Positions 57,204-60,095 of a stretch of 64,000 nt of DNA are shown piece by piece; the first letter of the stretch is position 1, and each line of letters begins with the position of its first letter. A program made the position numbers and the translations under genes. The DNA lies in assembly GCF_056746865.1 (NCBI RefSeq), contig NZ_CM163382.1; one strand, given 5' to 3'. A model generated the notes under the pieces. That model did no database searches and was not told the DNA's origin. It saw only the letters and a list, made by a program, of their open reading frames with translations.

Positions 57204-58361
57204 TTAATTATTCTCCATTTGTTTTGCAACATCCATAATGTGGTAAAGCGGTACTCTGTTCTTGGCTAACTCCACCATGGCGTTCATATAAGGTACCATG
57301 GTTGAAAAAAGGATTTTATAACCTTCGCAAAAATAGGAAACAGTCTCATTGTTTACTTTAGTAATACGATGCTTAGGGCAACCGCCATTGCAGATAGGTT
57401 TATATGCACATTGCTGACATTTCGCTGAAATCCGTTTTTTTTGCGCTGTCAGTTGTACACTGTTCATCGTTTTAAGTTCAGATTTATTAATGTTTCCAAT
57501 TTTGTACTGTGGATAGACAAAATGGTCGCATTCGTAAATGTCTCCATTACTTTCAACAACCAGATTATCCTTGCAGGACTCCTGGAAAATACAACTGGTA
57601 TGCCCATTCCCCAAAAAACGGCTGACAAAACTTTCAAACTGACGGATGAAAATTTCACCCACATCGTTTTTAACCCATTGCATAAAAATGGTCGACATAA
57701 ACTTGCCATAAGCCGTAGGAGGCACAGAAAAATCAATGATACGGAATGTGTTCTCACTATGACCACTGAAATAAATATTCGGCGTCCCGGTTTCGAGCAA
57801 TTCGATAAATTGCATATGTTTACTGCCGATAGATTTTAAAAAATGATAAACCTCAAGAGGGTAATGGACATTAACGTTATTAATGACGGTTAACGTATTA
57901 AACTCTACTTGATATGATTTCAGACGCTCGATGGCTGCTATCACTTTTGCAAAAGTACCGTTACCAGAATTACTGCGTCTGTAACGGTCATGTAGCTCCT
58001 GGGGTCCATCGATCGAGATACCAACCAGAAACTCATGTTCTTTGAGAAAGGCACACCATTCATTATTCAATAAAATGCCATTCGTTTGTAATGCATTAAA
58101 AATACGTTTTTGGCCTGCATAGCGTTGTTGATAGTGAATAACTTTACGGAAAAAATCCAGACCAGCCAGAGTGGGTTCACCGCCTTGCCACGTAAAATAG
58201 ACCTGATTGCCAGACGCTGCGATATATTGTTTGATGAACTCTTTCAGAGTGCTGTCATCCATCCATTTTTCATGAGTAAACTGCGACTCTTTTTCAAGGT
58301 AAAAACAGTAATCACATTTGAGATTACATTGAAAACTGGAGGGCTTGGCTGTAACGTGCAT
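57204..58361 (-). CDS. ydeM: Anaerobic sulfatase-maturating enzyme homolog (radical SAM/SPASM)
   Basis: About 385 aa; [10 protein letters not shown] radical-SAM cluster motif near N-terminus and C-terminal Cys-rich SPASM region. Confidence 0.85.
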
Positions 58362-58412
58362 CGCTATCTCGCTCAATAAGGCGGCGGAAAAATCCGCCGC
58401 ATGAAGGTTTAG

Positions 58413-60095
58413 TTATTTCGCTTCGCTTAGTGCTTTCTTGATATTGTTAAACTTCTCCTGATTTACCTCGCTAAGCGGTGGCTGGCTGCTGTCGATAAAC
58501 TCTCTTACCACGCCTTGCATCTCTTTAACGACCTGTGGATTGGCGGCGGCAAGGTTATCTTTTTGCTGTAGATCCGTCAGTTTGTATAGACCTAACTGAT
58601 TGTTTTCTACTGTATAGACAAGCGAATAATCGTTATTTCTCACCGTATAAGAGAATTGGCTTAAGTCCTCGGTATTGGGGTTATGCGGGTAATCGTCTGA
58701 CTGATGGCGGACAAATTTGTGGTAATTATCCCAGAATGGAATATTTTCCTCGTCAAACCAGTGAGAATAAGAGGTTATCCAGGTCAGATTTTTATGTGGC
58801 TCGCCTTGTTTCTTATCTTGCAACCACGGCAGCAAGGAAACGCCATCCAGCTTAAGGTCTTTTGGAATGCTGATATCGGCTGCATCAAGAGCTGTCGGGT
58901 AGAAATCCATTGCGGAAATCAGCTTGTCATAATTACCTGGTTGAAGTTTTCCTTTCCACCACATAAACATTGGGGTGTGAGTACCGCCAGGATAAGTCTG
59001 ACTCTTATAGCCTTTTTGCGCCCCGTTCAGCGGCAGAGGACCATCGATAACCGCACCATTATCGGAGGTAAAGAGAATAATAGTATTGTCATACTGTCCG
59101 TTTTTCTTCAGTTGTTCGAGAATGCGTTTTACACCCTGATCAACAGAATAAACGGAAGCGTAGTAGTTATCTGCTGTTTGACTACCGGTATTAAATTGCT
59201 TCTGATATTGCTCCGGTGCAGGATTATCATTTGGCAGGTGCGGAGCATTATAAGCCAGGTAAAGCATAAAAGGCTGGTCAAGTGTTTTGGCACGATCAAC
59301 AACGCCAATTGCCTCATCGGTTAACTGATCGCTGATATAACCTTTTGCGGGGACGCGTTCACGATTTTTGAACAGTGAAGGGGAGTTGTAATATGCCGTT
59401 CCTGCAGCGTGGAATCCCATAAAGTAATCAAAGCCACGGTTTTGAGGTTGCCATTCTTCCGCAGAAAATGTGGTGAAGTTGTCATGATAGTCACGCGTTT
59501 GTTTATCTTCCGGTACTGGCACATTACTGATTTTTGACAAGTGCCATTTACCTACTGCTGCAGTGTAATAACCATGATTCTGGAATAATTCAGGCAAGAA
59601 AGTTTCTGTTAGCGGAATACCATCCTGAGCATCGGTATTGGAATAGACACCAAAGCGGGCGGGCGCTCGACCGGTCATTATTGCGGCGCGGGAGGGGCCG
59701 GAAACACCGTGCGCCACATAGCCGTTAGTAAAACGTACGCCTTCATCCATTAATGAAAGGAGCGTCGGCGTTGATTTTTGCGCAGCTTCAATGGCTTTAT
59801 CTATCCCTATTTTGTAGGTATCGACAACTTCACGATTTTCCATTGTTTTTGGGTCAAAAGATTCCTTATCAAAAGGAAGTTGTCCATAACCAAGATCATC
59901 CATGGTCAGTACGATAATATTTGGCTTTCCTTTGGTACTGTATTCAGTCGGCGTAAAGTCTGAGAAAGCAACGTTTGTTTTGGTTGCTTTCAGCTTTACA
60001 TCATCTGCCGCATGAGCAGCAAATGCAGCCATACCAGATGCCAGTATCAAAGATATCGAGGTACTTACGACACTTTTCTTTAATGCAGACTTCAT
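58413..60095 (-). CDS. ydeN: Putative sulfatase (Ser-type, periplasmic)
   Basis: About 560 aa from MKSALKKS... (signal peptide); sulfatase signature around SGPSRAAIMTGR. Confidence 0.85.
   Translation of the reverse strand: MKSALKKSVVSTSISLILASGMAAFAAHAADDVKLKATKTNVAFSDFTPTEYSTKGKPNIIVLTMDDLGYGQLPFDKESFDPKTMENREVVDTYKIGIDKAIEAAQKSTPTLLSLMDEGVRFTNGYVAHGVSGPSRAAIMTGRAPARFGVYSNTDAQDGIPLTETFLPELFQNHGYYTAAVGKWHLSKISNVPVPEDKQTRDYHDNFTTFSAEEWQPQNRGFDYFMGFHAAGTAYYNSPSLFKNRERVPAKGYISDQLTDEAIGVVDRAKTLDQPFMLYLAYNAPHLPNDNPAPEQYQKQFNTGSQTADNYYASVYSVDQGVKRILEQLKKNGQYDNTIILFTSDNGAVIDGPLPLNGAQKGYKSQTYPGGTHTPMFMWWKGKLQPGNYDKLISAMDFYPTALDAADISIPKDLKLDGVSLLPWLQDKKQGEPHKNLTWITSYSHWFDEENIPFWDNYHKFVRHQSDDYPHNPNTEDLSQFSYTVRNNDYSLVYTVENNQLGLYKLTDLQQKDNLAAANPQVVKEMQGVVREFIDSSQPPLSEVNQEKFNNIKKALSEAK

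Follow-up and report, generated by a model that had tools for sequence, protein, structure and literature searches.

The 64,000-nucleotide window analysed here, one strand of contig NZ_CM163382.1 (RefSeq assembly GCF_056746865.1), contains at positions 57204–60095 two intact open reading frames (ORFs), arranged in tandem on the minus strand in the ORF list of the window. These are ydeN, encoding a sulfatase, and ydeM, encoding a radical S-adenosylmethionine (SAM) enzyme of the anaerobic sulfatase-maturating enzyme (anSME) family, with the sulfatase gene upstream and a gap of 51 nt between them. The ATG of ydeN (at 60095; stop at 58415–58413) is preceded, at 6 nt, by the Shine-Dalgarno sequence GAGGA (60102-60106); a longer, TTG-initiated version of this ORF (60128), lacking comparable Shine-Dalgarno support, was discarded. 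The ORF of ydeM extends from an ATG at 58361 to a stop at 57206–57204. Taking all the data together, the best overall explanation, held here with considerable confidence, is that ydeN and ydeM constitute a two-gene operon making an active periplasmic sulfatase.

The juxtaposition of a sulfatase gene and a maturase gene at this place is far beyond chance. The pair is the already annotated ydeN–ydeM of Escherichia coli and its existence is not a discovery, since both genes are annotated in E. coli 042, a strain to which the DNA of the window is ~100% identical across the ydeNM region. RefSeq describes them in 042 as 'sulfatase-like hydrolase/transferase' and 'anaerobic sulfatase maturase', and in K-12 they occupy the corresponding place as b1498 (ydeN) and b1497 (ydeM), the gene order being pqqL-yddB-yddA, ydeM-ydeN, ydeO-safA-ydeP. 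The YdeN protein of the window is that of 042, with two substitutions with respect to K-12. YdeM differs from its 042 counterpart only by D197Y (Tyr197 codon at 57771-57773), which is the sole protein difference from 042 in the pair, and from that of K-12 by D197Y and P312S, none of these changes affecting a cluster ligand.

YdeN is an S1 sulfatase by every sequence and fold criterion examined. It matches the Pfam profile PF00884 (Sulfatase) along its whole length (positions 1-301 of 301; E 2e-70), with 237.9 bits against a cut-off of 25. Its N-terminus, MKSALKKSVVSTSISLILASGMAAFAAHA followed by ADD, shows a basic n-region (K2/K6/K7), a hydrophobic core and an AxA cleavage site; no twin-arginine motif is found in it, and a lipobox is also missing, since the protein has zero cysteines. 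The signature located by motif search conforms to the pattern C/S-x-P/A-x-R-x4-T-G-R with a modifiable serine, and YdeN is of the Ser type, S132 being the residue predicted to be oxidised to formylglycine. The S-G-P-S-R core is invariant in the 15 YdeN orthologues aligned, which belong to different genera (15/15), and it aligns with the C/S-G-P-S-R of the crystallised sulfatases of subfamily S1_19, as do the catalytic and metal-binding residues. Furthermore, the metal ligands D66, D67, D345 and N346, together with R136, K183, H185, H286 and K364, are kept across 38 aligned relatives, with deviations at these positions limited to single substitutions in individual outgroup relatives.

An AlphaFold2 model of YdeN, built on the alignment of these 38 relatives, has a mean pLDDT of 90.5, residues 1–46 (pLDDT <50) being its only unstructured part. 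The modelled fold is of the alkaline-phosphatase-like alpha/beta/alpha type with a C-terminal subdomain, and Foldseek matches it to crystal structures of S1 sulfatases with a probability of 1.00 and TM scores of 0.80-0.82. After the signal peptide, all the YdeN orthologues examined display a near-invariant stretch of ~25 residues, KLKATKTNVAFSDFTPTEYSTKGKPN (residues 30-57; 59925-60008), which is mostly disordered in the model and absent from the nearest outgroup relatives, including those of the Ser type.

YdeM, in turn, is a member of the anSME family by every sequence criterion examined. It contains the Pfam domains PF04055 (Radical_SAM) and PF13186 (SPASM), and reaches 504.5 bits against the NCBIfam equivalog TIGR03942 'anaerobic sulfatase maturase' (cut-off 349.45), over positions 1-362 of the 363 in the model. 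A second NCBIfam model, NF010308, presumably of the AslB type, gives 358.9 bits, below its cut-off of 484. The best match among solved structures is anSMEcpe, from Clostridium perfringens (4K36; 34% identity over 346 aligned residues, E 5e-63), and the HMMER alignment to this protein was used to map the cysteines of YdeM residue by residue. In this way, C257/C263/C278/C328 correspond to C255/C261/C276/C330 of anSMEcpe, in auxiliary cluster I, and C315/C318/C324/C345 to C317/C320/C326/C348, in auxiliary cluster II, the assignment of the anSMEcpe cysteines to the two clusters being reportedly that of Goldman et al. 2013. All 11 iron-sulfur (Fe-S) cysteines of the crystallised enzyme are kept in YdeM, D279 lies at the position of anSMEcpe D277, and C103 is the only further cysteine of the protein.

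An earlier note, drawn from the letters of this DNA, had described a Ser-type sulfatase with a signal peptide, encoded directly upstream of an anSME homologue carrying a CxxxCxxC motif and SPASM cysteines. Every element of that description holds: the two genes follow each other on the minus strand across 51 nt, the signal peptide is of the Sec type and comprises residues 1-29, the S132-G-P-S-R motif is recovered also by alignment to crystallised proteins, and the identity of the maturase is sustained by TIGR03942 and by its complete cysteine set. Neither a sulfatase motif devoid of a modifiable Ser or Cys nor a maturase with incomplete Fe-S cysteines was found, S132 being present in the former and 11 of 11 ligands in the latter.

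Concerning the layout of the operon, its upstream boundary is the ydeO terminator (60449–60427), identified by a terminator scan. Two weak sigma-70-like matches precede ydeN (60326-60298 and 60162-60133), promoter matches being no commoner than in shuffled sequences. A search for the AraC half-site TAGCN7TCCATA, allowing up to three mismatches, returned 436 matches vs 429 expected by chance, and the AraC and GadX sites reported for this promoter were not placed. A shared upstream leader or riboswitch was also considered and rejected, as blastn comparison of the 1.5 kb upstream of the sulfatase in eight loci revealed nothing common between genera.

The spacer between ydeN and ydeM folds into a stem-loop (minimum free energy, MFE, -18.7 kcal/mol; z -3.3) whose stability is equalled by only 1 of 500 shuffled sequences. 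Strong stem-loops also occupy the sulfatase–maturase spacer in Yersinia pestis, Aeromonas veronii, another lineage of Enterobacterales, a metagenome-assembled genome (MAG) resembling Anaerobiospirillum, and Iodobacter (z -2.7 to -4.6; equally stable shuffles, 5 of 500 at most). Although the sequences of these hairpins are unrelated between lineages, the structure is present in 6/6 of them, E. coli included, and a similar hairpin is located 3' of an orphan YdeN paralogue (locus L004). The E. coli hairpin was not called by a simple terminator scan, because its U tract (CUUAUUG) is weak. Judging by its structure, it may act as a leaky terminator or as a 3'-end stabiliser that would keep the maturase sub-stoichiometric. 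The stem-loop past ydeM (MFE -20.9 kcal/mol; z -3.4; equally stable shuffles, 1/200) likewise escaped the terminator scan. The coordinates of all these features are collected in Table 1.

Table 1. Coordinates in the window of the ydeN–ydeM genes and of the features recognised in them and around them
Feature	Position	Strand	Description and basis
ydeN	58413..60095	(-)	560-aa Ser-type S1 (formylglycine-dependent) sulfatase precursor; ORF, PF00884, AlphaFold2 model
ydeM	57204..58361	(-)	385-aa radical-SAM/SPASM anaerobic sulfatase-maturating enzyme; TIGR03942, anSMEcpe alignment
Signal peptide of YdeN, Sec-type, residues 1-29	60009..60095	(-)	Predicted cleavage between AHA and ADD; read from sequence
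Formylglycine signature S132-G-P-S-R-A-A-I-M-T-G-R143	59667..59702	(-)	Motif search
Radical-SAM motif C12-NLK-C16-DY-C19	58305..58328	(-)	Equivalent to anSMEcpe C15/C19/C22
SPASM region, eight auxiliary-cluster cysteines (C257, C263, C278, C315, C318, C324, C328, C345)	57327..57593	(-)	HMMER alignment, PF13186
ydeN 5' regulatory region	60096..60426	(-)	From the ydeO terminator to the ydeN start
Intercistronic stem-loop GCGGCGGA-UUUU-UCCGCCGC	58381..58400	(-)	12 nt past the ydeN stop, then CUUAUUG
Stem-loop with 12-bp core, then UUCGUC	57119..57156	(-)	~50 nt past the ydeM stop; candidate weak operon terminator

A search with positions 57000-60500 of the window (a 3.5-kb query) found the region in 5322 of 5426 complete E. 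coli genomes (98%), counting matches that cover at least 80% of the query. When compared with K-12, ydeN shows 15 synonymous and 2 non-synonymous differences, and ydeM identical counts, leading to pN/pS values of 0.037 and 0.033, respectively. Both genes are under strong purifying selection, and are being maintained rather than decaying. Of the 5406 places matched, eight lie on plasmids, some genomes have two copies, and in the exact-match strain NZ_AP022173 an IS5 element is inserted within the region.

Outside E. coli, YdeN orthologues with 70–84% identity are found in Leminorella, Salmonella, Citrobacter, Dryocola, Yersinia (including Y. pestis), Proteus, Shewanella, A. veronii, Iodobacter and Anaerobiospirillum-like gut MAGs. 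Beyond these, among 1.84 billion representative proteins searched, identity falls off sharply to 45% or below, so that the YdeN clade is tight and isolated. The sulfatase gene is directly followed by a YdeM orthologue (52–67% identity) in the six further contexts analysed (6/6), which represent five lineages: Y. pestis, A. veronii, two contexts of the other Enterobacterales protein, the Anaerobiospirillum-like scaffold and Iodobacter. With E. coli, these make seven contexts, across which no neighbour besides the maturase is conserved. The neighbours are often transposases, integrase, phage genes or resolvase: insertion sequence (IS) transposases flank the pair in Aeromonas and a Y1 transposase in Y. 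pestis, with an integrase and phage genes, or a resolvase/serine recombinase, elsewhere (L003, L005, L006, L002). These mobile-element flanks suggest horizontal transfer. In the window, the GC content of ydeM, ydeN and ydeO (57204-61259) is 0.39–0.44 (0.39-0.42 at third codon positions, GC3), vs 0.476 for the whole window and 0.50 for the neighbouring ydeP, which is consistent with acquired DNA. The simplest reading is that ydeN–ydeM is a mobile, self-contained two-gene cassette distributed across several gammaproteobacterial genera and one betaproteobacterium.

The residue to be modified also distinguishes this clade. Whereas 25 of the 29 nearest outgroup relatives of YdeN are Cys-type, its orthologues are Ser-type without exception (15/15). 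According to the literature, a serine can be converted to formylglycine solely via the anSME route. The switch to serine in the YdeN clade accompanies its constant pairing with an anSME, and fits an obligate dependence on this kind of enzyme.

Some E. coli strains have, in addition, a second YdeN-like sulfatase of 565 aa (77% identity; a cluster of 303 member sequences; L004 3847-5544), whose gene is placed directly 3' of a porin gene and 5' of IS110-family transposase genes. No maturase was detected beside this paralogue, even at E = 10. Considering that a porin gene also lies upstream of the cassette in Aeromonas, a porin-sulfatase-maturase module was contemplated and discarded, as tblastn found no porin, nor any remnant of it, at the other loci. 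The window itself has a porin gene at 22351-23436 (-), ompC in the 042 annotation, whose product is 55% identical to the porin preceding the second YdeN-like sulfatase.

Expression of the pair has been touched on in several studies. Binding of GadX at the ydeN promoter reduces the level of its transcript (PMC4918353), and AraC is bound upstream of ydeN in the presence of arabinose but not otherwise (PMC3738151). In mice on a diet rich in microbiota-accessible carbohydrates, a gut-adapted strain with araC deleted shows up-regulation of ydeM (PMC10878103), and YdeN peptides were identified in anaerobic rumen-fluid cultures of E. coli O157 (PMC3936929).

As regards the substrate, the relatives of YdeN provide the leads. 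Its seven best sequence matches in the PDB are all S1_19 carrageenan sulfatases (E 4e-52 to 1.5e-42; top score 181 bits), namely ZgCgsA (9HH2–4), PfS1_19A (6BIA/6B0J/6B0K) and PfS1_19B (6PSM/6PRM), followed by enzymes of subfamily S1_16, and the fold search gives the identical order. Every S1_19 enzyme that has been characterised cleaves the 4-sulfate from D-galactose (PMC9096561), and Bacteroides S1_16 enzymes are described in the literature as sulfatases of 4-sulfated galactose (Gal) or N-acetylgalactosamine (GalNAc). It has to be said that YdeN shares with its outgroup relatives a segment of ~36 residues (YdeN 73–108), where ZgCgsA has ~5, and that, against S1_19, two of those relatives, P0122 and P0136, reach roughly the scores of YdeN itself (about 185-190 bits). 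Because the outgroup is equally distant and because of this segment, the YdeN family is probably a sister of the crystallised S1_19 enzymes, not nested in them.

Among relatives that are not orthologues, P0122 of Plesiomonas shigelloides is the nearest to YdeN, with 43% identity over 495 aa (450 bits; E 2e-145). Its locus (L010 1-14348) encodes a DeoR regulator (agaR), KbaZ, AgaS (TIGR02815), the phosphotransferase system (PTS) components IIB/IIC/IID-Aga, a KdgM-family porin, an anSME (TIGR03942, 507 bits), P0122 itself, a PF10022 protein, a class-II aldolase and KdgK, the P0122 gene lying between those of the anSME and the PF10022 protein. A further sulfatase of the locus, of 519 aa, gives 964 bits to 6J66, the crystallised Vibrio 4-O-endosulfatase of chondroitin sulfate and dermatan sulfate (CS/DS), to which it is nearly identical. 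This locus is, apparently, a complete chondroitin-sulfate/GalNAc utilisation cluster; both sulfatases in it are Cys-type and it contains one anSME. A 4-O specificity for P0122, considered by elimination, was set aside, since that role is already filled by the 6J66-like neighbour, and P0122 is for this reason more likely a 6-O enzyme.

An enzyme of this specificity is known in Photobacterium sp. QA16, where PB_3285 is a chondroitin-sulfate GalNAc-6-O-exosulfatase (PMC8819143). It could be compared with P0122 only through peptides reconstructed from the published primers (PMC8819143). Both proteins have a 28-residue signal peptide, similar mature N-termini (KTTADQPN against QGTAEQPN) and similar C-termini (ILTESAQ against ILTVSAQ), the latter at residue 535 in both. 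The single cysteine of P0122, at position 109, is the residue mutated in PB_3285, and 15 of 19 residues around it are identical. P0122 is presumed to be the PB_3285 orthologue on these similarities. YdeN itself is a homologue of PB_3285, not an orthologue, given its 43% identity to P0122 and its own tight clade, and, unlike P0122, its cassette lies outside any chondroitin/GalNAc utilisation cluster in all the contexts examined.

Taking into account these relationships, the most likely substrate class for YdeN would be that of small sulfated galacto-configured sugars from host or dietary glycans. The best lead within this class would be GalNAc-6-sulfate as the reducing-end residue of fragments of chondroitin sulfate or mucin, with Gal/GalNAc-4-sulfate in second place. 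That YdeN acts on sulfated Gal/GalNAc is a tentative proposal, to which we would give slightly less than an even chance; that its substrate is GalNAc-6-O-sulfate specifically is doubtful, even though suggested by the closest relative.

The earlier note had regarded E. coli sulfatase activity as cryptic and of unknown substrate, and the pair as conserved yet functionally open. Its conservation is borne out by the 5322 genomes and by pN/pS values of ≈ 0.03, and the literature agrees about the substrate; 'cryptic', in contrast, is an overstatement in view of the regulation, the detected protein and the purifying selection. The question of the substrate is also less open than was implied, as close relatives give a concrete lead.

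The following sequence of events can be proposed. YdeN would be made as a precursor bearing a Sec signal peptide and, within S-G-P-S-R-x4-T-G-R, a still inert S132, and YdeM would act on the unfolded protein in the cytoplasm, prior to export. Making use of its SAM-binding [4Fe-4S] cluster (C12/C16/C19) and of two fully Cys-ligated auxiliary clusters, YdeM would abstract a hydrogen from the C-beta of S132, leading to the oxidation of this residue to C-alpha-formylglycine. Once exported, matured YdeN would hydrolyse sulfate esters in the periplasm via the hydrated formylglycine, in an active site where Ca2+ would be bound by D66/D67/D345/N346, with the participation of K183/H185/H286/K364. The hairpin after the ydeN stop probably raises the abundance or stability of the ydeN message over that of ydeM, which would provide much substrate protein and little maturase. 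The desulfated product would feed carbon (GalNAc) and sulfate metabolism. The structure of the genes, their motifs and families, the fold, the conservation and the synteny were established directly, while for the chemistry, and for placing maturation ahead of export, we reason by analogy with the AtsA/AtsB and anSMEcpe paradigms. As to the mechanism, it is very probable that YdeN is a sulfatase and YdeM its dedicated maturase.

A broader picture may also be suggested, although in our opinion it is rather improbable as a whole. YdeN/YdeM could be a horizontally mobile, self-sufficient 'desulfation cassette', in which the sulfatase brings along its activator and the hairpin sets the ratio of the two products. 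It would enable enteric and aquatic proteobacteria to remove sulfate from GalNAc-6- or GalNAc-4-sulfate on small chondroitin or mucin fragments released by other gut microbes, thus unlocking GalNAc for the Aga pathway; the stretch that follows the signal peptide would be a clade-specific element for docking or for delaying export, permitting cytoplasmic maturation before Sec export.

Several facts weigh against the proposals made here. The hairpin has a poor U tract, its role is deduced from structure alone, and, according to the literature, ydeM is co-transcribed with ydeN. Specificity is not settled by 43% identity to a protein presumed orthologous to PB_3285, and the crystallised neighbours act on 4-O-, not 6-O-sulfate, the two leads disagreeing on the position. 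Moreover, PB_3285 is a very slow enzyme, in the range of mU/mg (PMC8819143). No published enzyme assay or characterisation of YdeN or YdeM was found in the accessible literature, and YdeN is not mentioned in Barbeyron 2016. Two further points concern the carbohydrate nature of the substrate: no linked glycosidase, sugar transporter or regulator accompanies the cassette in any genome examined (seven contexts), and ydeN was the only gene induced by FD&C Red 40, a sulfonated azo dye, under anaerobiosis, which could indicate aromatic substrates (PMC10653809).

These last two observations favour the strongest alternative, in which YdeN would be a sulfatase of broad range, or one directed at non-carbohydrate esters (aryl, steroid, bile-acid or xenobiotic), serving mainly for sulfate scavenging or de-conjugation of host metabolites, with YdeM still as its maturase. 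A lone periplasmic enzyme would be suited to small, porin-diffusible molecules, and the best NCBIfam sulfatase match of YdeN is 'arylsulfatase', though sub-threshold. However, ydeN deletion left dye degradation unchanged (PMC10653809). Carbohydrate sulfatases account for all of its nearest characterised relatives and structures, and steryl-sulfatase and ARSA match YdeN far more weakly (92-103 bits vs 181 for S1_19). Control by AraC and GadX, in addition, resembles a carbon hierarchy or gut adaptation more than the response to sulfate starvation (Cbl/CysB) usual for arylsulfatases that scavenge. This alternative is consequently rated as possible, but less so than an action on sulfated Gal/GalNAc.

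A second alternative maintains that YdeN is a galactose-4-sulfate sulfatase of the carrageenan type (S1_19), active on dietary carrageenan oligosaccharides or on GalNAc-4-sulfate, and not a 6-O enzyme. Although the best matches in sequence and fold are S1_19 galactose-4-sulfate enzymes, and the next ones S1_16 enzymes acting on 4-sulfated Gal/GalNAc, the probable sister position of the YdeN family, whose outgroup relatives are as distant from crystallised S1_19 as YdeN is, and the segment 73-108 detract from this idea, as does the fact that P0122, a much closer relative, matches a 6-O-exosulfatase and has a 6J66-like neighbour already in charge of the 4-O role. It is therefore unlikely.

It could also be argued that ydeNM is a cryptic evolutionary remnant, functionless in present-day E. 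coli, as its low GC is what acquired DNA would show and E. coli K-12 has classically been described as having no detectable sulfatase activity. Against this, both ORFs are intact with all catalytic residues and a pN/pS of ~0.03, they are retained in 98% of complete genomes with orthologues 70-84% identical across genera, transcription is regulated and the protein has been detected, all of which makes a remnant very improbable. Least probable of all is that YdeM matures a ribosomally synthesised and post-translationally modified peptide (RiPP), its adjacency to ydeN being incidental: its sub-threshold matches to the DynA, DarW, DarE and YhhB models, which arise because anSMEs and RiPP SPASM maturases are homologous, remain far under the cut-offs (218.6 vs 450; 163.5 vs 650) whereas the anSME equivalog is well above its own, the locus has no precursor-peptide gene, and synteny with a Ser-type sulfatase is kept across six lineages.

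The existence of the pair matters little in itself, both genes being named and annotated in every E. coli RefSeq record, and what is newly added here is modest: the cassette behaviour, the structurally conserved hairpin, the shift to the Ser type, the conserved N-terminal stretch predicted to be disordered and a substrate shortlist. Nevertheless, E. coli is the standard host for sulfatase expression, and its own maturation capacity is poorly understood. The relatives of YdeN narrow an open-ended substrate screen to GalNAc-6S, GalNAc-4S and the chondroitin disaccharides delta-C and delta-A. If true, the GalNAc-sulfate lead would connect E. coli with a gut cross-feeding based on sulfated glycans of the host, with which the up-regulation of ydeM in mouse-adapted araC-deleted strains is consistent.

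Two additional features of the window can be recorded. An ORF of 40 codons (57116-57238, plus strand) is antisense to the 3' end of ydeM; it corresponds to YneP (b4747) in K-12, from which it differs in five residues, and to a 'hypothetical protein' in 042. Besides, at ~1600-8100, placed by coordinate mapping to the 042 annotation, there should be a small type VI secretion island adjoining yncG, which according to that annotation contains PAAR, VgrG/TssI, an M35 peptidase, hypothetical proteins and an ISAs1 transposase fragment.

Among known systems, the pair recalls AtsA/AtsB of Klebsiella pneumoniae, reportedly a Ser-type sulfatase and its radical-SAM maturase, said to have been described by Szameit in 1999 and Marquordt in 2003. 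In both cases, the gene for a Sec-exported Ser-type S1 sulfatase stands beside that of a cytoplasmic radical-SAM/SPASM enzyme, and the serine of the motif is the one converted, or predicted to be converted, to formylglycine. The order of the Klebsiella genes, atsB before atsA, is the reverse of that of ydeN-ydeM, and AtsA is an arylsulfatase under sulfate-starvation control, whereas YdeN falls in another branch, one resembling carbohydrate sulfatases, and is under GadX and AraC control. With anSMEcpe (PDB 4K36-4K39), YdeM shares the SAM and auxiliary cysteines and the Asp next to C276, but it lacks the non-ligand cysteines C59, C137, C138, C164, C194, C263 and C333, and has C103 as an extra of its own. 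The cognate clostridial sulfatase of anSMEcpe is Cys-type, while YdeN is Ser-type.

With enzymes of the PB_3285 type, compared via P0122, YdeN aligns collinearly along its entire mature length, with the 36-aa segment and C-terminal subdomain included; P0122 and YdeN are both predicted to be periplasmic, and the genes of both lie beside an anSME. However, P0122 and PB_3285 are Cys-type and lie within a full chondroitin/GalNAc utilisation cluster, whereas YdeN is Ser-type, has the extra conserved N-terminal stretch and travels with its maturase only. The S1_19 carrageenan sulfatases ZgCgsA (9HH2-4), PfS1_19A (6B0J) and PfS1_19B (6PSM) have a catalytic constellation identical to that of YdeN (TM 0.80-0.82), but they are marine, Cys-type enzymes acting on carrageenan galactose-4-sulfate, and lack the 73-108 segment and the C-terminal helices. 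Finally, E. coli possesses a second pair of a sulfatase and a putative maturase, aslA-aslB, located outside the window, AslB and YdeM being the two 'putative anSME proteins' of the species (PMC8379841).

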